The position numbers were made by a program, and so were the translations under genes. 64,000 nt of DNA from Paenibacillus beijingensis (GTDB lineage Bacteria; Bacillota; Bacilli; Paenibacillales; Paenibacillaceae), in the NCBI RefSeq assembly GCF_000961095.1, contig NZ_CP011058.1, positions 3,478,492-3,542,491 of the forward strand, written 5' to 3'. Each line of letters opens with the position of its first letter. Within the stretch, counting starts at the first letter, position 1. Shown in pieces: positions 834 to 36,466 of the stretch. The notes beneath the pieces were generated by a model. It searched no databases. It worked only from the letters and a program-made list of their open reading frames with translations, and was not told the origin of the DNA.

Positions 834-1756
834 ATGATATTTTTATCGATATTATGGAACAATGTGCTGCCGCTCTCCATCATGATTGCGCTCGGAATCC
901 TTTTGCAGCGCATTTTTGCGCTCGACATTCGTACACTGTCAAAACTGAATTTTTATTTGTTTTCTCCGGCAGTCATATTCGATCTGCTCTATACGACCGA
1001 AATTTCGGCCGGGCTGATCGGCCAGGTGCTGTTGTTTGTGACCGTGTTTATGCTGCTGCAGTACGGACTTCTGGAAGCGGTTATCCGGCTGCGCGGTCTG
1101 CGCGGCGGATGCGCGCGACGATGCGCGGCAGCGTACTGTTCTATAACAGCGCCAATTACGGCATTCCGCTCAACCAGCTCGCTTTTGCCGGCAATCCGGT
1201 TACGCTCGCGGTTCAGGTGGTCATTATGATGGTGCAGTCGCTGCTCCCGAATACATACGGCATTTACAGCGTCAACGCCCACAAGAACGACATTCGGGCG
1301 ATCTGGCGCGTCATCGTTTCACAGCCGATTATTTATGTCATTCCGCTGGCCTTTGCGCTCCGCGGATTTTCAGTGCCGCTGCCGGGCTTTATCGAGACGC
1401 CGGTCGGGTATTTGGCGGACGCATTTATCGGAACCGCGCTCATTACGCTCGGCGTTCAGCTTGGCTCGATGAAGGGGATGGCGGGCCGCATTCGCACTGC
1501 GGACCTGCTGCTGTCGGTATCAGCAAGGCTTGTCGCAGGGCCGGCGCTCGCTGCGCTGACGGTATGGGCGCTTGGAATTGACGGCATCATTGCCCAGGCG
1601 CTGATCGTGTCATCAGCTGTTCCGACATCGCTGAGCAGCGTGCTGCTGGCCGTCGAATTCGACAATGAACCGGAATTTGCTTCGCAGGCGGTGCTGGCCT
1701 CGACCGTGCTCAGCATTTTCACCGTCACCCTTGTCATCGCGATGCTTCAAATTTGA
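834..1756 (+). pseudogene. AEC family transporter (auxin-efflux-carrier/malate permease-like), apparent frameshift
   Basis: The N-terminal membrane part reads in the frame of ORF 834..1229. The C-terminal part (VLFYNSANYGIP... to the end) reads in the frame of ORF 821..1756. The switch lies near 1100-1125, in a GC-rich GCGCGCG run. Confidence 0.5.
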
Positions 1757-2121
1757 TCTTCCTTCGTCCAGCGGATGGCCGAATCCGGCTCGGGATAACG
1801 TACATATTGCTCCAGCCCCGCCTTTTCAAGCTGCTCGATCAAATATTCGGGCGGCGTTTTCTCGACGCCGGGATAGCCTTTGCGGGTATAAATATGCTCG
1901 GCGTCCGGGAACAGATCGCGCAATATGCCGCGGATACGCTTGCCCGATGAATCGTTGTCGGTAAAAACATACACCTGCCGGTCGCCCACCTGCTTGCGCA
2001 GCGTTTCGAGCTGCTGTGTGCCGGGCGTACCATACGTGCAATAAATCGCAATCTCCTCACCCAGTACGAGCCTCAGCCGGCTGCGATCGTTTTTACCCTC
2101 CACAATGATGGCCGCCTCCAT
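1747..2121 (-). CDS. Toprim domain protein (YusF-like)
   Basis: 124 aa with the EGKNDRSRL and FTDNDSSG Toprim signature. Convergent with the AEC gene. Confidence 0.6.
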   Translation of the reverse strand: MEAAIIVEGKNDRSRLRLVLGEEIAIYCTYGTPGTQQLETLRKQVGDRQVYVFTDNDSSGKRIRGILRDLFPDAEHIYTRKGYPGVEKTPPEYLIEQLEKAGLEQYVRYPEPDSAIRWTKEDQI

Positions 2122-2186
2122 AAAAATCCGCTCCCTCTCCCGCGTATGTTAATCAATAGGGCTTGTCCTTATACATATACAAAAAA

Positions 2187-2210
2187 AGGCTTGCCCGCGC
2201 AAGCCTGAAA
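2187..2210 (-). terminator. rho-independent terminator (minus strand)
   Basis: AGGCTTGC-CCGC-GCAAGCCT hairpin followed by a T-run on the minus strand, after the small YjcZ-like gene. Confidence 0.5.
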
Positions 2211-2297
2211 ATCGGAATAAGATCCGTACAAGAGTTTTTTCTTCTATGGAAGGTTCGCTTGCAAAGAGAGGCAGGGGCGGTTAAGCCCCTGTCATTA

Positions 2298-2423
2298 ATA
2301 CCAGCAAATGGCGCTGAGGATAATGACCAGCAGGATGAACAAAACAAGAACAGTACCGGGAGTAGTACATACTCCACCAACGGCAGGGTATTGATCGTTA
2401 TCATGACCTTTTCCGTATGACAT
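2298..2423 (-). CDS. YjcZ family small sporulation protein (42 aa)
   Basis: MSYGKGHDNDQYPAVGGVCTTPGTVLVLFILLVIILSAICWY. The Gly-rich N-terminus, hydrophobic VLFILL core and short Cys/aromatic C-terminal tail are typical of the family. RBS GAGGGGTGA precedes ATG at 2423. It sits inside track ORF 2295..2546. Confidence 0.6.
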
Positions 2424-2552
2424 AGGTAAGTCACCCCTCTTACTCCGAATTAAATCGTCCGGCCCGATCGTGGAATGCTCCGCTCCCGAACCATCCGACA
2501 CAATGGTAGTATATGTACCCTGTAGATAGCCGCCCTGTGCAAACACCCAGGT

Positions 2553-3797
2553 TCAAGTAAAATGGGTGCGAGCGGATATTTTCCGTCCGCCGCCGTGAAA
2601 AGGCAGGAGCGTGACGGCAAGCATGAGAACAACGAACGAAATATAGTACGGGGATACGAGGTGCCGTAAATGTCCGGCGAGCATCGGGCCCAGAAAGGAA
2701 CCGACCGAAAACGCGATCGACAGAAAAGAAAACGTCCGGCCGTAACGCGAACTGCCGCTCAGCTCGATCAGCAGCGTGGACAAGGCGGGAAAAATGATTC
2801 CTTTGGCCATCCCGACCAGCAGCAGCATAAGGGCAAACGGTGCACCGACCCCAAAGGCAATTGCAAAATAAACAAGCGCCAGCATGAACGCCCCCCAGAG
2901 CGAGCGGCGGAAGGCGGACAGCCGGTTCAGGAACAGCATCGACAGCGTAATGAGCCCGCCCGCGCTGACAACGGAAAACAAGAGACCAGTCGTCATGATC
3001 CCTTCCTTGGTCGTATTCATGAGCGGCAGCTCAAACGAAAGAATGCCCTGGGAGCAGCTAAGCGCAACCGGGAGCAGAAATACAAGCCATGGATAGGAAC
3101 GGGACGAATCGCTTCCGTGCGGCAGCTCCGCTGCTGCCGGAGCGGTATGGGAGGCCAGCGAGAGTCTATTTCTGCCGGCGCGGCCGCCGCGTTCTGAACG
3201 GGGACCAATTGCGGCAGCTTTGCCGGGCTGGACGTTCGAATACGTCTCAGCCGGTTGATCTCGGACGAACAGCAGCGCGCATACGGCGGTTGCGATCAGG
3301 ATCCAGCCAAGCAGATAGAAGGCCATCGTGAACCCGAGCTTGGCAACCAGATAAGCACCGGCAGCGGGGGAGAAAACCGAAGCGAGCGTGTGCACCAGCC
3401 CGTTGCCGGCCATCAGCTTCCCCTGCTGCTCGCTGCTGCGGGCCATCCGCGCGAGCAGCGCCATGCAGGCTGGAGAAAGGAAAGCCAGCACAAAGCCGCT
3501 GATCGAGCGGAGCACGAGCAGCTGCCACGGATTGGCGGCGCGCGATTGCAGCAGCAGAATAATGCCCGCTCCGAGCAGGCTGAATACAATGAACATACGG
3601 CTGCCGTAACGGTCGACGCTGAAGCCGGCAATCATGTTGCCGGGCAGATGGGTGATGGAATATAAACCCATCATCAGCCCGATAAATGACGGAGCGGCGC
3701 CAAGCGAAACGGCGTACGGCGTCAGAATAGGGTACTGGGCATGAAGATCGAAGAACGCAACGAACAGAAACAGGTAAAGCCACACGGCCGTTTTCAT
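2553..3797 (-). CDS. MFS transporter
   Basis: 414 aa with 12 predicted TM helices and a central loop. MFS-like DRYGSR motif. Confidence 0.8.
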   Translation of the reverse strand: MKTAVWLYLFLFVAFFDLHAQYPILTPYAVSLGAAPSFIGLMMGLYSITHLPGNMIAGFSVDRYGSRMFIVFSLLGAGIILLLQSRAANPWQLLVLRSISGFVLAFLSPACMALLARMARSSEQQGKLMAGNGLVHTLASVFSPAAGAYLVAKLGFTMAFYLLGWILIATAVCALLFVRDQPAETYSNVQPGKAAAIGPRSERGGRAGRNRLSLASHTAPAAAELPHGSDSSRSYPWLVFLLPVALSCSQGILSFELPLMNTTKEGIMTTGLLFSVVSAGGLITLSMLFLNRLSAFRRSLWGAFMLALVYFAIAFGVGAPFALMLLLVGMAKGIIFPALSTLLIELSGSSRYGRTFSFLSIAFSVGSFLGPMLAGHLRHLVSPYYISFVVLMLAVTLLPFHGGGRKISARTHFT

Positions 3798-3967
3798 GCT
3801 TAGCCTCCTTTCTTATTCACCACACTTACTTGTACGTGGACAGGGGGCCGGATATGTCTACCGCTTCCGTCCCCGCTTCCCGGCAGCGTTTACGCTCTGT
3901 CCCCTGTAGGTTATAATGGGAGGTAAATGAATTTTTTTTGTAAAACCAGAGGGGGTACTTCAAAGCA

Positions 3968-4405
3968 ATGGATATACAATACGATTGGACGACATGGAGT
4001 CAGTTTTTCAAGGAAAACTGGATCGTGCTCGCAGTGGCTCTCGTCATTTTGCTGGCCGTGATCGGCATTGTGAAGACAGTCGCCAAGTGGGCGCTCGTGG
4101 CGGTCATCGTAATCGGCATCGTTGTTTACAGCGGATACAACCTGCAGGATTTGAAGGATTTGGGCACGAAGGTGACGGACTCGGTCAAGGAGCAGGCGGT
4201 TAATGCGATGATCGGGGAAGCGCAGGATGCCACTTATACGAATAACGGCGACGGCACATACACCGTCAAAACGAAAAACGTCGAATTAACGGGCAAAATT
4301 GGGGGCAGCGAGGTAGCCGTATCGTATCGCGGCACTTCGCTCGGCACCTGGAAAATAGATCAAACGATTCGAGGATTGATTGACCGGGCCAAAAACGATG
4401 TATAA
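3968..4405 (+). CDS. hypothetical membrane-anchored protein
   Basis: 145 aa with one N-terminal TM segment, no recognisable domain. Confidence 0.4.
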   Translation: MDIQYDWTTWSQFFKENWIVLAVALVILLAVIGIVKTVAKWALVAVIVIGIVVYSGYNLQDLKDLGTKVTDSVKEQAVNAMIGEAQDATYTNNGDGTYTVKTKNVELTGKIGGSEVAVSYRGTSLGTWKIDQTIRGLIDRAKNDV

Positions 4406-4423
4406 CCGCACGGCTTCCAGGAG

Positions 4424-5590
4424 GTGCTTGACATGACATCATGGGCGGATATGCTGCTGAAGTTGGAACCGGTTGCGCTGCTTGTGCTGCTGATCCTGCT
4501 CGGATCGTTTATGCAGGGATTGTTCCGCGGCGCTTCCGGTTCGGCAAACCGGCTGTTTATATTTTTGTGGGAGGGCGTGCTGCTGGTCGTCTCCCTCTTT
4601 CTGGCCGGAAGGATTGCGGGGGCTGCTTCTGCGCCCGTCCGCAATTGGCTGATGGCAAGCGTAGAGGTTCCCGCCCGGCAGCTCGGCGCTTTGGAACAAG
4701 CATGGTATACGTTCGCCACAAGCGTTCGCGACTTCGCGATGCTTCGTTTCGGCGTTTTGTTTCTGATCGCTTACATGCTGCTGCGGTTTCTGTTTTCTTT
4801 TCTGAGTCCGCTCGCCTGGATGCTCTTTGCCGGCCTGTCCGGCGGCCTGAAGGCGGGGGAGAAGACGATTCCGGGAGGGCGGGTCATCAGCAGGCTGACC
4901 GGCGCGCTGATCGGCGTGCTGCATGGGGCTGCCCGCTCGCTCGTACTGATCGCGATATTGTTCATCTATGTTTCCTTGTTCCCGGTCGCTCCGTTTACGG
5001 ACGGCATTAAAGCTTCCCCGGTATATAAAGAAGCGTCCGCGAAGCTGCTGCAGCCGGTAGCGGGACAAGTGTTAGAGAAGAGCGGACCGGTCATTACGAA
5101 GGCGGTCGGCGATGAATTTCAACAAATCTTGCAGCGCAAGTATGAAATTATCGATTATAACATTCCGTCCGATATTAACGGCGCCGCCAAAGAGATCGTC
5201 AATGGGAAACAGACGGACGAGGAGCGGGCGCGCGCTCTTTATGACTGGCTCGGCGATCGCATCGCCTACGATTGGGATAAGGCGAACAACTATATTAACA
5301 ACGGCGTTTGGAAGGAGCAGACGCCCGAGGAGACGTTTGCGACGCGCAAGGGCGTCTGCATCGATACGGCGCGCCTGTATGCGGTAATGGCGCGGTCGGT
5401 CGGCCTTGAAGTGCGCGTCGTCACCGGTCAAGGTGCGGACGGCAGGGGCGGCTTTGGTCCGCATGCCTGGAACGAAGTGAAGCTGGCGGACGACGGCGGC
5501 AGGTGGGTTCCGCTGGACGCGACATGGGCTTCCTCCGGCGACTGGTTCGACACGCCCGATTTTGACAAAACCCATTTTCGGGAAGTGTAG
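4424..5590 (+). CDS. CvpA-like membrane domain plus transglutaminase-like domain protein
   Basis: N-terminal multi-TM region. The C-terminal Cys...His...Asp transglutaminase core is present (KGVCIDTARLYAV, HAWNEV, D). Confidence 0.65.
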   Translation: MLDMTSWADMLLKLEPVALLVLLILLGSFMQGLFRGASGSANRLFIFLWEGVLLVVSLFLAGRIAGAASAPVRNWLMASVEVPARQLGALEQAWYTFATSVRDFAMLRFGVLFLIAYMLLRFLFSFLSPLAWMLFAGLSGGLKAGEKTIPGGRVISRLTGALIGVLHGAARSLVLIAILFIYVSLFPVAPFTDGIKASPVYKEASAKLLQPVAGQVLEKSGPVITKAVGDEFQQILQRKYEIIDYNIPSDINGAAKEIVNGKQTDEERARALYDWLGDRIAYDWDKANNYINNGVWKEQTPEETFATRKGVCIDTARLYAVMARSVGLEVRVVTGQGADGRGGFGPHAWNEVKLADDGGRWVPLDATWASSGDWFDTPDFDKTHFREV

Positions 5591-29615: not shown

Positions 29616-30794
29616 GTGATGAATTTTTTGCTGGATATGAAAACCGTTTTCGTATTGCTTATGATTGGACATCTGTTTACCGTCATTTTGATCAGCGCTT
29701 ACCGGCGTCAGCATGCGAAAGACAGCACCGTGAACACTTTTTTCGGGGCAAAATTAGCTCAAGCGCTGGCATGGCTGCTCGTCGCGCTGCGCGGCCAAAT
29801 ACCCGACTATCTCTCCGTCTCTGCAGGCAACACGCTTCTGTTTCTCGGGGAGGCGCTGGAAACGGCGGCGCTGCTGAAGCTGCAGGGAGCCTTCAATCAA
29901 AAGATCAAACGGATCTACATTATACTGTCCGCCGTCAATTTCGCGGCTTTTCATGCGGTGTTTCTGCTGTACAACGTCGAATACATACGAATTGCAGTCG
30001 CTTCGTTCGGCACGGCGGCTTACATTATTATACCTGTGTGGCTGATGATCCGGCGGCGGGATTCCTCATTGCTTAACGTTATGGTCGGGTATTTGTATCT
30101 GCTCGTTTTTATATCTCTCATTGGCAGAGGGATCTTAGCGCTTCGGCCGGGTTCCAGCATGGGGTTGTTCACGCCAGACCTGTTTCAGACATTGACGTTT
30201 GTGTCCATTTACCTCGTCATGATTTTGGGCAATACCGGTTTTGTGCTCTTGTCCAAGGAACAGGCAGATCGGGAACTGCTGCGGGTGGCCAGCTATGACG
30301 ATTTGACGGGCACGCTGAACCGCAGAACGTTCATTTTGCGTTCCAGGCAGTGCCTCGCCGATTATGCGCGAAAAAAAGCGCCGGTGTCGCTGCTGCTGTT
30401 TGACATCGATCATTTTAAAACGATTAACGATACATACGGTCACAGTGCCGGGGATATGGTGCTGGAGCTTTTGGCGAGCCGCATCCAGGAGCAGCTCGGC
30501 GCGGGCGATCTGTTCGGCCGGTACGGAGGCGATGAATTTGCGGTTCTGATGCCCGGCGCCGATGAAACGGCATCTGGCCGGACTGCCGAGCGGATCCGCG
30601 AGGTGGTAAGCTCCGTTACGCTGCCGGATATTCCATTAACGTTTACGATCAGCGGGGGGCTCGTCACCGTCGTCCCCGATCAGCGGACGCAGCTTGAGCT
30701 GCTGTATACGCTAACCGACAACGCGCTGTACAGCGTGAAAAAGAGCGGGCGAAACGGCGTGCAGCGCAGCCGGCTGCAGCTTGATTCCGGATGA
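29616..30794 (+). CDS. GGDEF-domain diguanylate cyclase with an N-terminal multi-TM sensor region
   Basis: Six to seven TM helices followed by a GGDEF domain (RYGGDEF). No inhibitory-site RxxD motif was checked. Confidence 0.8.
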   Translation: MMNFLLDMKTVFVLLMIGHLFTVILISAYRRQHAKDSTVNTFFGAKLAQALAWLLVALRGQIPDYLSVSAGNTLLFLGEALETAALLKLQGAFNQKIKRIYIILSAVNFAAFHAVFLLYNVEYIRIAVASFGTAAYIIIPVWLMIRRRDSSLLNVMVGYLYLLVFISLIGRGILALRPGSSMGLFTPDLFQTLTFVSIYLVMILGNTGFVLLSKEQADRELLRVASYDDLTGTLNRRTFILRSRQCLADYARKKAPVSLLLFDIDHFKTINDTYGHSAGDMVLELLASRIQEQLGAGDLFGRYGGDEFAVLMPGADETASGRTAERIREVVSSVTLPDIPLTFTISGGLVTVVPDQRTQLELLYTLTDNALYSVKKSGRNGVQRSRLQLDSG

Positions 30795-30800
30795 TGCCGC

Positions 30801-31187
30801 TTAATCATCAATGGCGGAAGGTCCCATCGTTGCCTGGCAGGCCAACCGGTAACCAGCCTTAACGTCGTCGGACAATAATTTGCGCTCGCGTTTATTGGCC
30901 TCAGTGAGCAAGCCGGCTCCGCTGATTAAGCGTATTTTGCATACGCCGCAGGAGCCTTTTCGGCATTTGTATTTGAGCGGAATACCGTTGTCCAAGCCTG
31001 ACTCTAATAGATTTTTCCCTGGAATAAAAGATACCTCATAAACATTTCCGTCCTGAATGAGGCGGATGCCCGATATTGCAGTTCTTGATACCGTCTTTGG
31101 AATCCCGGGGGGAGTCGACGTTTTATGTTGTTGATTGACAACAACCGAGCTTGGCACTAAAGAGCCGACCGTCAATTTTCGATTCAT
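30801..31187 (-). CDS. 2Fe-2S ferredoxin-domain protein with an N-terminal encapsulin targeting-peptide-like motif
   Basis: CRKGSCGVC...LACQA plant-type [2Fe-2S] ligand pattern. N-terminus MNRKLTVGSLVPS. RBS GGAGATG. Divergent from the cargo-encapsulin ORF. Confidence 0.7.
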   Translation of the reverse strand: MNRKLTVGSLVPSSVVVNQQHKTSTPPGIPKTVSRTAISGIRLIQDGNVYEVSFIPGKNLLESGLDNGIPLKYKCRKGSCGVCKIRLISGAGLLTEANKRERKLLSDDVKAGYRLACQATMGPSAIDD

Positions 31188-31280: not shown

Positions 31281-32720
31281 TTGCAGCGAATCGCACAGTT
31301 AAGAGATATGTTTACCGTCACCAAAGAGAATATCCAATATTTTATGAACTTGATCAGTCCGATTATTGCAAACGCTGTCGATGAGCATCAACGGATGTAC
31401 TTTCATCACATTTTCGAAGAAGAAGAACAGCATTTGGAGCGTCTGGAACTATTTCTCCCTAAGTTGGCCGAGCTGGCTATCGTTTCTCCGAACGAAGCTG
31501 CCGAGCGCAAATTGATAGGTTTGCTGCAGGATATCAACCTGGAAACGTTCGGGCAGCATAATTTTCTGGAGCACCTTGAACTGATGCTATTCCACTTTAC
31601 ATCCGGCGAGACCAACCAGAAGCTGCACGGAATGATTGACCAAACGAAACGTGATTACCTTATTATAAAAGATATTTTGTTTCAATTGAATGAAGAATTT
31701 CTTCCGGAAGCCAATCGTGCCAAAGCATCCGATCATCATGACGTGCACAGCGCGGCTCATCAAAGCCCCGTTTCAGCCGATTTCAATTGGAAGAACGAAG
31801 CGCCGGCAAGAAAAGGATTAACGGTTGGCAGCTTGAAAGGAATGAAAAAAGAGCAATTTTTCCGGAGGGTTACGATGGCAAACAAAGTCGATATTTATCC
31901 CGACTCCCCGCTAAATGCGGCGCAATGGGAGCAAATGAATGAAACCATTATTGAGGCCGCCCGCAAACAATTGATCGGCAGACGGTTTATCGAAATCTAT
32001 GGTCCGATCGGAGAAGGCATCCAGTCGATCAATGTCGACATCTTCGACGAACTTCAGGGCGGGGGAATCGACGTTCACGGCAGTAAACTTGAACTTTCCG
32101 TCCCAAGCCGGAGAAGGAACTTGACCATACCGATGCTGTACAAAGATTTTACGCTGTATCGAAGAGATTTTGAATTGGCGAAAAGTCTTTCCATCCCGCT
32201 TGACTTAAGTCCGGCTGCCAATGCGGCAACGCAGTGCGCAAGACTTGAGGATGAGCTGATCTTCCAAGGCTCGGAAGAATTCGATCTTCCCGGGTTAATG
32301 AATGTTAAAGGCCGTCTGACCCACATTATCGAGAATTGGATGGAATCGGGAAAAGCGTTTGAAGATGTCGTAGAGGCAACCCGTAAATTACAGCAGGTGG
32401 GACAAACCGGGCCGTACGCGCTTGTGTTGTCGCCCGAATTATACGCATCGTTGCATCGTGTCCATCAAGGAACCAATGTTCTGGAGATCGAGCATGTGAA
32501 GGAGCTCGTAACCGACGGCGTATTCCAGTCTCCGTCGCTTAAAGGCCGATCCGGAGTGATGGTCAATACAGGGCGCCACAATTTTGACTTGGTCATCGCC
32601 GAGGATTTCGACAGCGCCTTCCTTGATTCGGAACATTTGAATTTTCTGTTCCGGGTTTATGAGACGATCGTGCTCCGCATCAAGCGGCCAATTGCGATTT
32701 GTACGTTTGAAGAAGCTTAA
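31281..32720 (+). CDS. IMEF/ferritin-like cargo domain fused in frame to a family-1 encapsulin shell protein (full-length product)
   Basis: The reading frame is continuous from ATG 31233 (the likely start is TTG 31281, RBS AAGGGGGAG) to TAA 32720. The N-terminal roughly 200 aa are helical and E/H-rich (EEEEQHLERLE, FLEHLE). They end in the targeting peptide GLTVGSLKG (31815..31841). The C-terminal 281 aa are a linocin-M18/encapsulin fold. Confidence 0.7.
   Translation: MQRIAQLRDMFTVTKENIQYFMNLISPIIANAVDEHQRMYFHHIFEEEEQHLERLELFLPKLAELAIVSPNEAAERKLIGLLQDINLETFGQHNFLEHLELMLFHFTSGETNQKLHGMIDQTKRDYLIIKDILFQLNEEFLPEANRAKASDHHDVHSAAHQSPVSADFNWKNEAPARKGLTVGSLKGMKKEQFFRRVTMANKVDIYPDSPLNAAQWEQMNETIIEAARKQLIGRRFIEIYGPIGEGIQSINVDIFDELQGGGIDVHGSKLELSVPSRRRNLTIPMLYKDFTLYRRDFELAKSLSIPLDLSPAANAATQCARLEDELIFQGSEEFDLPGLMNVKGRLTHIIENWMESGKAFEDVVEATRKLQQVGQTGPYALVLSPELYASLHRVHQGTNVLEIEHVKELVTDGVFQSPSLKGRSGVMVNTGRHNFDLVIAEDFDSAFLDSEHLNFLFRVYETIVLRIKRPIAICTFEEA
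31875..32720 (+). CDS. family-1 encapsulin nanocompartment shell protein (internal initiation product)
   Basis: GGAGGG at 31864..31869 lies 5 nt before ATG 31875. The 281 aa align along their whole length with T. maritima encapsulin (AAQWEQMNE...LIGRRFIEIYGPIG, EDELIFQG, GPYALVLSPELY, and the C-terminal ICTFEEA). Confidence 0.8.
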   Translation: MANKVDIYPDSPLNAAQWEQMNETIIEAARKQLIGRRFIEIYGPIGEGIQSINVDIFDELQGGGIDVHGSKLELSVPSRRRNLTIPMLYKDFTLYRRDFELAKSLSIPLDLSPAANAATQCARLEDELIFQGSEEFDLPGLMNVKGRLTHIIENWMESGKAFEDVVEATRKLQQVGQTGPYALVLSPELYASLHRVHQGTNVLEIEHVKELVTDGVFQSPSLKGRSGVMVNTGRHNFDLVIAEDFDSAFLDSEHLNFLFRVYETIVLRIKRPIAICTFEEA

Positions 32721-32726
32721 GTTTTG

Positions 32727-32765
32727 CATGCTCTCCTTTGTGGAGGGCATGCTTTTTATTTTTCT
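32727..32765 (+). terminator. rho-independent terminator after the encapsulin gene
   Basis: GCATGCTCTCC...GGAGGGCATGC followed by TTTTTATTTTT. Confidence 0.7.
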
Positions 32766-32833
32766 TGAATAATAACAGGAAGAAAATCATAAGTTAAGCA
32801 CTGAGATGAGAATTTTGGGAATGAGAATCATTC

Positions 32834-32863
32834 TTGACAAATGCGACCGCCTTATACTATGAT
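32834..32863 (+). promoter_or_regulatory. sigma-A-type promoter (TTGACA-N18-TATGAT)
   Basis: Consensus -35 and a near-consensus -10 upstream of the 32994 gene. Confidence 0.6.
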
Positions 32864-32871
32864 GGTCTCAA

Positions 32872-32890
32872 GATAATGAGAATCATTATC
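32872..32890 (+). promoter_or_regulatory. Fur box (GATAATGAGAATCATTATC)
   Basis: 18 of 19 positions match the classical Fur box GATAATGATAATCATTATC. It sits at about +1 of the promoter. A second half-site-like palindrome, AATGAGAATCATT at 32820..32832, overlaps the -35. Confidence 0.7.
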
Positions 32891-32993
32891 GCGAAGAAAC
32901 GATCAAACTGCTGCTGTATTTCTGTTGTTCTTGCTCTTCTTTGCTTGTTTCGTACTGGGATATTTGAACTTCAACAGGAATTAACTGCATAAG

Positions 32994-33479
32994 ATGGAGG
33001 CTATTATGATTACGTCAATTAATGGTTTGCAGGATATTCATACCGTGATACGAAATGAGCGAAAAGTCGGGGGAGCAGTAGAGGCAGAGCGAATCCGCTT
33101 ATGTTCTGGCGAAGAATATGCTTATCCTGTCATAACAAGCGTGGATACCGATGGAAAAACAATCTATTCGATCGGTTTTTTTACCAATGACGGAACACGA
33201 ATTATCGCAAATATAAGTGAGGTCGCCCAGATCTCCCAGCCGTCGCATAAATGGCTAAAGGATTTGGTCAATACAAATTATAAGTCGTTCAAGATCGGTC
33301 AGAAAGTAAACTATTTGCTTCGGCTTTGTGAACTGAACGAGGGAAGCGCAACTTCGATTTTTCGAGCGGAAGTGGAAAGAATCGTGGAAGATATCGGTGC
33401 AGATTCGATTGCGCATGTGAAAAATGCGCATCCAATCCTGCAGCATTCCGCCAAAATACTGCCGATGCGCATCGCCTAA
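32994..33479 (+). CDS. hypothetical protein (predicted Fur-regulated)
   Basis: 161 aa with no recognisable domain. Lies downstream of the Fur-box promoter. RBS GATGGAGG. Confidence 0.5.
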   Translation: MEAIMITSINGLQDIHTVIRNERKVGGAVEAERIRLCSGEEYAYPVITSVDTDGKTIYSIGFFTNDGTRIIANISEVAQISQPSHKWLKDLVNTNYKSFKIGQKVNYLLRLCELNEGSATSIFRAEVERIVEDIGADSIAHVKNAHPILQHSAKILPMRIA

Positions 33480-33583
33480 GAACTAAAATCGGGAGCAAGA
33501 TGCTGTCCCGTTTCATAAGCTTCAAAACAACGAACCGGTCAAAGGCTGATCTTGACCGGTTCGTTTGCTTGGAGAGTAGAAAT

Positions 33584-34502: not shown

Positions 34503-35219
34503 ATGTATCGTATCTTGATCGTAGAGGATGATGAGAAGATCGGCGCGCTGCTTCAAAGCTATATTTGCAAATACGGCTTCGAGGCGATCATCGCCAAACG
34601 GCTGAACAAGTTGAACGCGGAGTTTGAAGAAACGGCTCCGCATTTGGTGCTGATGGACATCAACCTGCCTTTTTTCGACGGCTTTTATTGGTGCCGCCAG
34701 TTTCGCGTCCGCTCGAATGCGCCCGTTATCTTTATTTCCGCGCGGGCGGGGGAGATGGATCAGGTGATGGCGATCGAAAACGGAGGCGACGATTATTTGA
34801 CGAAGCCGATTCATCTGGACCTGATGATCGCCAAAATCAAAAGCGCGCTTCGCCGCGCTTACGGCGAATATGCGTCGGCTTCGGCGGCCGGCAAAGCGGC
34901 CGGGCCGTCCTGCGGCGGCCTCCGTCTCGACAACGGGCGCAGCCATCTCGAGTGGTCGGACCGCCTTGTAGAGCTGACCCGCAACGAGCGGCTGCTGGCG
35001 GAATGTCTGCTGGAAGCGGAAGGTCGGATTGTTTCCCGCGAACGGCTGCTGGAAGCGCTCTGGGACGATGTTCAGTTCGTCGACGACAATACGCTGACGG
35101 TGAACGTGACCCGGCTGCGCAAAAAAATGGAGGAGCTCGGGCTTTCGGAAGCGCTCGAAACGGTGCGCGGACAAGGGTACCGGCTGCGGACGGAAACGTT
35201 GGCGGACAGGACGGTATGA
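34503..35219 (+). CDS. OmpR-family response regulator (BceR-like)
   Basis: Receiver domain (LMDINLP) plus a winged helix. Confidence 0.85.
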   Translation: MYRILIVEDDEKIGALLQSYICKYGFEAIIAKRLNKLNAEFEETAPHLVLMDINLPFFDGFYWCRQFRVRSNAPVIFISARAGEMDQVMAIENGGDDYLTKPIHLDLMIAKIKSALRRAYGEYASASAAGKAAGPSCGGLRLDNGRSHLEWSDRLVELTRNERLLAECLLEAEGRIVSRERLLEALWDDVQFVDDNTLTVNVTRLRKKMEELGLSEALETVRGQGYRLRTETLADRTV

Positions 35220-35478
35220 GGAGCGGATGGACGTATGTGCTGGACAGGCTTTTTTACATCGTCTCTTTTCTGGCTGCAATCGGAGTCGGGTGTCTCATCT
35301 GGATATTGGACCGAACCGCTGCGCGGACAAGGGTACCGGCTGCGGACGGAAACGTTGGCGGACAGGACGGTATGAGGAGCGGATGGACGTATGTGCTGGA
35401 CAGGCTTTTTTACATCGTCTCTTTTCTGGCTGCAATCGGAGTCGGGTGTCTCATCTGGATATTGGACCGAACCGCTGC
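35167..35478. repeat. perfect tandem duplication of 2 x 156 bp spanning the RR 3' end and HK 5' end
   Basis: Two identical 156-bp copies. Each contains the RR tail, the RR stop (in copy 1), the HK RBS and the first 36 HK codons. Confidence 0.85.
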
Positions 35479-36466
35479 GGGCAGCGGCTATTACGGGTGG
35501 ACACTGCTTTATTTTGTGCTGCTGTCCGTTTTTGCGCTCGTGCTTTTTCTGGCGGCGGATTACGCCCGCCACAAACGTTATTTGCGCCAGCTGCAGGCGG
35601 CGCTTGCGCAGGCGGGCGATCCGCAAGCTCTGCAGCAGCTGAACGCGGGCGTCACGCGTGAGCAGCGCGCCGTGCAGGAGTTGCTTGCCGCCCGCCATCT
35701 GGCCTATCACAATGCGCTGGATGCATACAAGAAACGACAGGAGTTTCACCATCATTTTATCCATCAATGGGTTCACCAGATGAAGACGCCTGTTTCGGTC
35801 ATCGATCTGATCGCGCAGCAGGAGAGCGGCGGCGGGCTGTCCGGAGCGGAAGCGAAGGCGTTGCTGCTGAGCGTCGGCGAAGAGGCGGAACGGCTCGCAC
35901 GAGGGCTGGAGCAAATGCTGAACACGGCCCGCCTGGACAAATTCGAGCTCGATCTGCATCCGAAGCGGCTAGCGCTGCACGAGGCGGCGCGCAGCTGCAT
36001 CAATACGCATAAGCGGCTTCTTATTCGCGGGAGCATTTTTCCGCAGGTGGAGGGCGAGGCTTGGGCGGAAACGGACGAGAAATGGCTGGCTTTCATTCTG
36101 AACCAGCTGATCGCGAACGCCATCAAATATTCCCGTCCGAAACCGGGCAGCAAGCGGCTGACAGTAAAAGTCGGGCACGCTCTGAACGGCGTCGCGACGG
36201 TGACCGTGCAGGATGAGGGCATCGGCATCCCGTCCCAAGACTTGCCGCGCGTGTTCGATCCGTTCTTTACGGGCGAGAACGGCCGCTCCAGCGAGGAGTC
36301 CACCGGGATGGGATTGTATCTTGTTCAGCAGGTGTGCCTGAAGCTCGGCCACCGGATCCGGATCGAATCGGCGGAGGGACGGGGAACGGCGGTGACCGTT
36401 GAAATAAGCGGCGGCGGAATTCACGGGATGGCGCGGGAGATGCAAACTTTTGCGGAAGAACGGTGA
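35372..36466 (+). CDS. sensor histidine kinase, intramembrane-sensing BceS-like
   Basis: Two TM helices with a minimal loop, an H-box-like QWVHQMKTP region, and an HATPase. ATG 35372 is in copy 2 of the duplication. An alternative start at ATG 35216 in copy 1 would add a 52-aa in-frame N-terminal repeat. Confidence 0.75.
   Translation: MRSGWTYVLDRLFYIVSFLAAIGVGCLIWILDRTAAGSGYYGWTLLYFVLLSVFALVLFLAADYARHKRYLRQLQAALAQAGDPQALQQLNAGVTREQRAVQELLAARHLAYHNALDAYKKRQEFHHHFIHQWVHQMKTPVSVIDLIAQQESGGGLSGAEAKALLLSVGEEAERLARGLEQMLNTARLDKFELDLHPKRLALHEAARSCINTHKRLLIRGSIFPQVEGEAWAETDEKWLAFILNQLIANAIKYSRPKPGSKRLTVKVGHALNGVATVTVQDEGIGIPSQDLPRVFDPFFTGENGRSSEESTGMGLYLVQQVCLKLGHRIRIESAEGRGTAVTVEISGGGIHGMAREMQTFAEER

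Follow-up and report, generated by a model that had tools for sequence, protein, structure and literature searches.

No protein-based iron store is known to be larger than the encapsulins loaded with the ferritin-like IMEF cargo, which take the place of ferritin in most of their hosts. The IMEF system of Quasibacillus thermotolerans and other Firmicutes combines the IMEF cargo, a T=4 shell and a ferredoxin bearing a cargo-loading peptide (PMC6668986, PMC13572399), and all three are encoded in the stretch of DNA analyzed here, a 64-kb part of the Paenibacillus beijingensis genome (hereafter the window), in which a small gene that we call X, with a Fur box on its promoter, follows the encapsulin shell gene. 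The 2019 description of IMEF systems recognized a two-gene core that is accompanied by ferredoxins in 70% and by ferrochelatase-like genes in 31% of operons (PMC6668986), and a survey of 2021 mentioned ferredoxins as the only associates. According to a 2024 review, iron release was still to be demonstrated and in vitro assays were perhaps missing a protein, while a 2026 paper described a three-gene IMEF operon with a ferredoxin of function not known (PMC13572399). None of these four descriptions mentions X, earlier notice of which elsewhere is possible, and the literature joining "encapsulin" with "Fur box" consisted of a general review only. X lacks the TVGSL loading peptide by which known cargos are defined, and it adjoins the system here and at nearly all of the related loci examined.

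The bfd gene of Pseudomonas aeruginosa is Fur-repressed and is induced by iron starvation. The locus of X resembles the bfd/bfrB pair (PMC6668986; PMC11202242) in that a small gene, predicted to be starvation-induced, lies beside an iron-storage cage whose genes are transcribed separately, and in that a Bfd-like 2Fe-2S ferredoxin frequently accompanies X. Unlike bfd, X encodes no ferredoxin, has no conserved cysteines and has a different predicted fold, and it lies beside an encapsulin with the HK97 fold where bfd has a bacterioferritin. EncD, the flavin-binding ferric-reductase cargo of the Myxococcus encapsulin (NF058680), is the proposed iron-release component of an iron-storing encapsulin; X shares neither sequence similarity nor a targeting peptide with it, and NF058680 gave no more than a 0.069 hit in our searches, on the tail of the IMEF protein and not on X. 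Regarding the promoter, the closest systems are those of Firmicute Fur regulons such as that of B. subtilis, where the 19-bp box comprises two overlapping 7-1-7 sites (TGATAATNATTATCA), and which the X promoter resembles in sequence (18 of 19 positions), in the overlap of its boxes with the -35 and +1 regions, in having multiple boxes, and in the use of the same motif before siderophore-uptake genes in related genomes. It departs from them in that X falls outside all families of described Fur-regulon genes and in that half-sites in X promoters often have G at position 4 (TGAGAAT). The operator is an ordinary Fur box, and the novelty is a previously unrecognized conserved component of a known system.

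The original prediction, made by reading the window, held that the gene directly downstream of the encapsulin gene is a strong candidate for the Fur regulon and is plausibly linked to the iron store. Its position is as was said, the shell gene ending at 32720, and the analyses below lead us to a reading to which we assign a probability of roughly 0.6, namely that Fe-Fur represses X, that iron starvation induces it, and that X acts together with the IMEF compartment, probably in iron mobilization. The Fur box alone would be unsurprising; its value is that it points to a conserved gene, predicted to be gated by starvation, that makes iron release from IMEF encapsulins testable.

The promoter of X

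The sequence GATAATGAGAATCATTATC at 32872-32890 agrees with the 19-bp Fur box GATAATGATAATCATTATC at all positions except position 9, where T is replaced by G, exactly as had been counted in the original prediction. When the whole window was searched for GATAATGATAATCATTATC with up to three mismatches, this site was the single match, against an expectation of 0.01, and none of 100 shuffled sequences equaled it. Inside it lies the 7-1-7 site TGAGAATCATTATCG (32877-32891), with two mismatches to TGATAATNATTATCA. The promoter itself consists of TTGACA (32834-32839), an 18-nt spacer and TATGAT (32858-32863), and with a score of 11/12 was the top sigma-70-like match between 30700 and 34500. Counting from the end of the -10 element at 32863, transcription would start at about 32870-32872, so that the box would span approximately +1 to +20, and the claimed placement of the box over the +1 stood.

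A second operator, said to overlap the -35, was also found, but only in a longer form does it do so. The 13-mer AATGAGAATCATT occurs in two exact copies, at 32820-32832 and at 32875-32887, the latter inside the Fur box; the copies are 55 bp apart, where chance would give a count of 0.10 even if one mismatch were tolerated. The upstream copy stops one base short of the -35 hexamer and thus abuts it, and an overlap, of 2 nt, arises when the element is taken as the 19-mer GGGAATGAGAATCATTCTT (32817-32835). This location of Fur boxes over predicted core promoter elements fits repression, and we consider it very likely that 32817-32890 is a sigma-A promoter under functional Fur repression.

X is predicted to be transcribed on its own. 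The IMEF and shell genes form a separate transcription unit that ends in a terminator (32726-32752), located between the end of the encapsulin gene and the X promoter; because this terminator is strong, the promoter of X would be autonomous. Downstream, a hairpin at 33529-33565 separates X from a convergent methyltransferase gene. It was read from the sequence, as our terminator scan was limited to loops of 8 nt and therefore did not list this hairpin, which has a 9-nt loop. It is probably a bidirectional terminator, in which case X would be monocistronic. No Fur box with up to three mismatches was found upstream of the IMEF or ferredoxin genes of the window itself.

Conservation of the operators

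To follow the operators across genomes, we scanned with the X alignment, taking one genome per GTDB species, which gave 40 loci (loci from related genomes carry L numbers below). A strict Fur box, defined as a 19-mer with up to three mismatches or a 15-mer with up to two, was present between -150 and -1 of X at 36 of these 40 species loci, roughly 100 times the background, which elsewhere in the same loci (473 kb) amounted to 0.0095 strict clusters per 150 bp. Under a relaxed definition (15-mer, up to three mismatches), 46 of 47 distinct X upstream regions carried boxes, with a mean of about three per region and centers from -130 to -25. Fur-type boxes were seen on X promoters in Paenibacillus-like lineages, Brevibacillus, Aneurinibacillus, Anaerobacillus, Gracilibacillus, Aquibacillus, Evansella, Thalassobacillus, Schinkia, and several Bacillus lineages, while the Geobacillus locus had a weak box only, with three mismatches and read by eye. 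Such promoter-overlapping boxes, kept upstream of X orthologs in about a dozen genera, bear out the candidacy of X as a member of the Fur regulon.

The arrangement of the boxes was also recurrent. Typically, an inverted box lies right before the -35 (AATAAAAATCATTCTCA-nn-TTGACA in Brevibacillus) and one or two boxes lie past the -10; a Brevibacillus X promoter in which a box fills the spacer (TTGACA-GATAATGATTTTCATTA-TACGAT) has further boxes on both sides. Among the Paenibacillus-like relatives, the -35-proximal operator was kept in four of four, reading GATAATGAGAATCATT(A/C)TTGACA in L054 and L056 and GGGAATGAGAATCATTATT in L001, and the operator past the -10 was kept in L001, L054 and L056. 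The -35 hexamer was TTGACA in four of five of these relatives and TTGAAA in L055. The 5′ untranslated region (5′UTR) between the operator and the ribosome-binding site (RBS) was variable or deleted in the same relatives while the operators persisted, and this retention of the putative operators amid a diverged 5′UTR is a classic footprint. Brevibacillus species in which X has other neighbors (YitT, thiM) still carry Fur boxes, and because the boxes persist where neighbors differ, they would belong to X and not to the adjacent genes.

In B. subtilis, sites bound by Fur have GA...TC at positions 2-3 and 13-14, whereas those of PerR (TTATAATNATTATAA) have TA...TA and those of Zur (TCGTAATNATTACGA) have CG...CG. 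The site of the window, TGAGAATCATTATCG, has the bases of a Fur site at these positions, and across 138 sites in X upstream regions, position 2 was G in 81% and position 14 was C in 81%. Moreover, the same motif precedes iron-acquisition genes in two related genomes: in Anaerobacillus (L009) it occurs at 3018 and 3104, in a divergent promoter between the FecCD and binding-protein genes of a siderophore ATP-binding cassette (ABC) transporter, and in Bacillus sp. Marseille-P3661 (L053) it occurs near FhuF and FecCD genes; the window has no other site. Since G2 and C14 prevail and the same motif fronts siderophore-uptake genes, the boxes upstream of X are, by their sequence, of the Fur type.

Linkage of X to IMEF encapsulins

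With the IMEF, shell and ferredoxin proteins of the window as tblastn queries, 35 of the 40 species loci proved to have the shell gene no farther than about 6.4 kb from X, and 29 to have an IMEF gene. The test was also run in reverse, with IMEF proteins chosen without regard to X from Aneurinibacillus, Thalassobacillus, Schinkia, B. marinisedimentorum, and Bacillus sp. Marseille-P3661. At each of these five loci, a gene for a protein of 154-170 aa without a Pfam assignment lay convergent to, and immediately past, the shell gene; all five matched the X profile in hmmsearch (E = 1e-50 to 1e-56) and had Fur-like boxes at their promoters. With X near the shell gene in most loci and present in all five IMEF loci that were picked independently, the functional link to the compartment that had been proposed from the window gains support, and we judge it probable, at a level just below that of Fur repression itself.

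The orientation of X was less constant than its neighborhood: in Paenibacillus-like loci, X follows the shell gene in the same direction, and in the other loci the two are convergent. The ferredoxin gene was directly upstream of X in L009, L010, L012, L013, L020 and L053 and divergent from it in L050, L052 and L057; the Geobacillus locus, which also contains X, was arranged like the five loci of the reverse test, with ferredoxin and X divergent. Because the adjacency of X and the shell gene survives such changes in gene order, selection would account for it better than a single inherited arrangement. Taken with the reverse test, X is, on the evidence of gene neighborhoods, a conserved and so far unnamed accessory gene of IMEF encapsulin loci in Bacillales.

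In two genomes, the ferredoxin-X-encapsulin cluster is contiguous with genes for an FhuF-like ferric-siderophore reductase and a FecCD/binding-protein ABC transporter (L009, 24-5070; L053, 10937-15849). The Fur boxes of L009 lie in the divergent promoter of the transporter and the matches in L053 near the FhuF and binding-protein genes. In each of the two regions, these genes together form an iron island. In L012, the ferredoxin-X pair is preceded by a gene for a 1211-aa protein (961-4596), CobN/chelatase-like by eye, and two Fur boxes (4823-4858) separate this gene from the pair. The protein may be the "ferrochelatase-like" associate reported for 31% of IMEF operons.

A further gene, encoding a DUF2325 protein of 93-99 aa, is divergent from the IMEF gene at 20 loci (19 Brevibacillus species and L002, a look-up locus outside the 40-species set) and additionally in Schinkia and Bacillus sp. 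Marseille-P3661. These loci are L025 (10546-10973), L002, L015-L019, L022, L023, L027-L029, L031, L033, L034, L038, L042, L044, L046, L048, L051 and L053. In L025, the Fur boxes GGGAATGATAATATTTATC and TGATATTCATTATCA are placed just past the likely DUF2325 promoter, and most of the other loci have Fur-box matches at the corresponding position upstream of IMEF, the box sequences differing in L051 and L053. We rejected this second Fur-box cluster of Brevibacillus and Schinkia as an IMEF operator, as it sits 30-90 bp before the divergent DUF2325 gene and downstream of the likely promoter of that gene. The cluster probably serves DUF2325 and not IMEF, and the DUF2325 gene would then be a second Fur-controlled gene flanking the storage operon. 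No DUF2325 homolog was found in the 64-kb window.

Gene X and its protein

The open reading frame (ORF) at 32994-33479, first taken to encode a 161-aa protein, is real, but translation likely begins at an in-frame ATG at 33006, with GGAGG 5 nt ahead of it, giving 157 aa. The annotated VN24_15915 of P. beijingensis is the identical 157-aa protein, and all homologs align from this methionine. Homologs, which include proteins of Brevibacillus, Aneurinibacillus, Geobacillus, Mechercharimyces and Ammoniphilus, are named "hypothetical protein" in every public source. The Fur box itself can be translated (…IMR(I/F)(I/V)I…), with the result that ORF calls and annotations lengthen X spuriously at the N-terminus, to 172 aa in L010 (5956-6474) and 170 aa in L052 (9517-10029), and that the window has a spurious 52-aa ORF (32834-32992).

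The remote homology search that had been suggested for X recovered its own family but no relative outside it. A profile search of 1.84 billion cluster representatives returned 23 clusters (50% identity), all of the X family itself, and neither Pfam (searched with one sequence and with 12 members, E up to 10) nor NCBIfam, PHROGs or, in a profile search, sequences of the PDB gave a match. An AlphaFold2 model built from a 12-sequence alignment had a mean predicted local distance difference test score (pLDDT) of 82 and a predicted template modeling score (pTM) of 0.77. It starts with an N-terminal helix, continues with a small Sm/SH3-like beta-barrel (approximately residues 24-82) and with three or four C-terminal helices (90-147), and ends in a disordered tail. 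With this model, the best Foldseek match was Synechocystis Hfq (E = 0.017), and no significant match was found in the viral structure library BFVD.

Across 47 unique X sequences, the residues G7, D10, N17-E18-R19-K20, G22-G23, E26, L32, G35-E36, T44, H81, N89, K96, L104, L107, G113, F119, E122, D129 and G131 were invariant. The C-terminus was Ile-Ala in 47 of 47 (residues 156-157 in the window), usually as (R/K/T)-I-A, and follows a variable linker that is predicted to be disordered. This invariant tail may be a motif for docking or recognition, or else a tag for degradation.

Several assignments of X were rejected. It is not a canonical encapsulin cargo, as none of the 47 unique sequences contained a TVGSL-type loading peptide ([TS][VIL]GS[LIV]). 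Nor is it an Fe-S, ferredoxin-like or Cys-metal protein: there was no match to Fer2, no four-Cys 2Fe-2S motif and no invariant cysteine among the 47 sequences, several of which carry L, F, V or A in place of C108. An origin of X as a phage capsid accessory had no support from PHROGs or BFVD.

Proposed role of X and alternative explanations

Under the mechanism that we propose, Fe(II)-Fur would occupy both operators as long as iron suffices, blocking RNA polymerase; under iron scarcity, Fur would depart and a monocistronic mRNA for the 157-aa X would be produced. X would then help the cell to use stored iron during starvation, working with the IMEF compartment, whether as a partner of the ferredoxin, as an acceptor or escort of the released Fe(II), or by docking to the shell via its invariant C-terminal tail. 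We infer Fur binding and iron-dependent expression of X from the established behavior of Firmicute Fur boxes, and a place for X on the retrieval side of the system from the Fur-controlled bfd next to bfrB. The retrieval side is suggested because X is frequently paired with a Bfd-like ferredoxin; even so, the odds that the role of X lies specifically in iron mobilization seem to us about even. A more detailed version, in which X is the missing iron-release factor, Fur-induced and docking to the shell, possibly through Ile-Ala, and enabling, together with the ferredoxin that bears a cargo-loading peptide, the reduction and export of iron, is put forward tentatively, the balance being somewhat against it.

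If the proposal were true, IMEF systems would consist of two modules, one for storage (IMEF and shell) and one for Fur-gated retrieval (X with or without ferredoxin). By their sequence, the storage genes and the putative retrieval gene are transcribed separately, as are bfrB and bfd. A fourth, conserved and locus-linked gene with predicted starvation induction would provide a concrete and cheap target for the question of iron release, and the X family, with proteins of about 150-160 aa, merits a database name.

A number of points weigh against the proposal. The 40 loci are mostly from Brevibacillus and are non-independent, with about a dozen genera as independent lineages; the position matrix behind the percentages for G2 and C14 was built from consensus-selected sites and is partly circular; and the box at 32872-32890 is ranked within the 64-kb window of P. 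beijingensis. The X genes of B. borstelensis, B. parabrevis and B. centrosporus have kept their Fur boxes but have no encapsulin gene in the 6 kb around them. In the protein itself, no cofactor or metal-binding signature was seen, and the missing loading peptide, invariant cysteine and relatives in the family databases count in the same direction.

Among the alternatives, the one that survives best is that X, under the control of Fur, is a regulator of the Sm/Hfq-like kind that binds RNA (or a small ligand) and acts post-transcriptionally in iron starvation, for example by shutting down the synthesis of iron-storage genes or by aiding the iron-sparing response, without acting on the compartment. 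The predicted N-terminal helix and small bent barrel of X superpose on Hfq and LSm chains at low significance; X differs from such proteins in having no sequence-family match, an extra helical domain of 60 residues and the conserved C-terminal tail. Structural scores were weak, the small-barrel fold is very common, and none of 12 members of the family gave a Pfam LSM/Hfq match at E up to 10. Moreover, the convergent arrangement of X is not kept in Paenibacillus, and a regulator would leave the repeated pairing of X with ferredoxin unexplained. We regard this explanation as unlikely, though as the most serious of the alternatives.

Alternatively, X could be a general iron-starvation protein whose proximity to encapsulins reflects the mere clustering of iron-related genes. 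The iron islands of L009 and L053, with their siderophore transporters and FhuF, are what such clustering would produce, as are the few Brevibacillus species in which over 6 kb separate X from any encapsulin. Against this, X was seen only in sampled lineages that carry IMEF systems, it was found at each of the IMEF loci chosen without reference to it, its adjacency outlasts inversions and differing flanking genes, and its family is tiny, as expected of a system-specific accessory. Clustering alone is therefore improbable in our estimation, and distinctly more so than the role as a regulator.

Still less probable is that the operator is read by PerR or Zur, with X responding to peroxide or zinc. 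The 7-1-7 architecture is common to boxes of the Fur family, and a link to oxidative stress is conceivable for an IMEF cargo related to Dps (PMC6668986); the sites of X promoters nevertheless have the GA...TC pattern at 2-3/13-14, including the prevalent G2 and C14, and the motif recurs before the siderophore-uptake genes of L009 and L053. Finally, that the box is a chance AT-rich palindrome with no regulatory role, for which only the general frequency of AT-rich intergenic sequence speaks, is highly improbable given the number of matches expected per window and the conservation of position and type across about a dozen genera.

Features of the locus

The features of the locus are collected in Table 1.

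Table 1. Coordinates of features at the X locus in the window (a dot indicates that no strand is assigned).
Feature	Position	Strand	Details
2Fe-2S ferredoxin, N-terminal cargo-loading motif (MNRKLTVGSL...)	30801..31187	-	Pfam Fer2, E = 5.8e-13
IMEF ferritin-like cargo, TTG start	31281..31850	+	PF24309 IMEF_Flp, E = 1.5e-42; TIGR04536, E = 2.2e-54
Family 1 encapsulin shell, 281 aa, AJY77782.1	31875..32720	+	PF04454, E = 1.1e-69; NF041155, E = 1.6e-85
Intrinsic terminator, IMEF-encapsulin operon	32726..32752	+	11-bp stem, 7 GC pairs, then TTTTTATTTT
Upstream Fur-like operator GGGAATGAGAATCATTCTT, core AATGAGAATCATT at 32820-32832	32817..32835	.	abuts -35 hexamer
Sigma-A-type promoter TTGACA-N18-TATGAT	32834..32863	+	predicted, 11/12 score
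Main Fur box GATAATGAGAATCATTATC	32872..32890	.	18/19 to consensus; identical in L001
Pyrimidine-rich 5′UTR segment	32889..32985	+	in-frame leader-ORF remnant, without RBS and ATG
Gene X, 157 aa, VN24_15915	33006..33479	+	RBS GGAGG at 32996-33000
Hairpin AACGAACCGGTCAA / TTGACCGGTTCGTT	33529..33565	.	14-bp perfect stem, 9-nt loop; read from sequence

In the 5′UTR of X, the relatives L054 and L056 have an ORF for a hydrophobic peptide of 28-29 aa between the Fur box and X (MMLVVLLSIYCLSAISILACSMYLNLKKN, MLPVLLFAYCSIAAIILGFSMYLNLKKN), each with a GGAGGG RBS and an ATG. The window retains the open leader frame (…AAVFLLFLLFFACFVLGYLNFNRN*) with RBS and ATG gone, and L001 is without the whole segment. 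A riboswitch or small RNA in this long 5′UTR was considered and rejected, since Rfam hits at E up to 10 were sub-threshold noise and the RNA fold did not stand out from shuffles (z = 0.09); as judged from the relatives, the stretch is the remnant of a small leader ORF instead.

The ferredoxin gene is divergent from the IMEF gene; its LTVGSL motif comes from the ORF translation, and its ATG and RBS were read in the sequence. The exact 281-aa shell protein is present in the public collection. In the window, the stop codon of IMEF is replaced by GAG (31851-31853), where the close relative L001 has …GMKK-TAG, so that cargo and shell form one open frame (31281-32720) in which eight codons read through to the shell ATG at 31875. 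This ATG keeps a GGAGGG RBS of its own, NCBI annotates the shell alone, and the fused IMEF-shell translations that were tried (495 and 479 aa) were absent from the public collection. The open frame may be a natural fusion of cargo and shell; otherwise it stems from a point mutation or an error in sequencing.

On the other side of the ferredoxin gene, a gene for a membrane-anchored GGDEF diguanylate cyclase (29616-30794) is convergent with it and ends 7 bp from its 3′ end. Beyond X, a tandem duplication at 35156-35479 (a 156-bp unit in 2.1 copies, 98% identical) falls where an OmpR-type response-regulator gene (34503-35219) meets the histidine-kinase gene that follows it, and has doubled the N-terminal membrane segment of the kinase.

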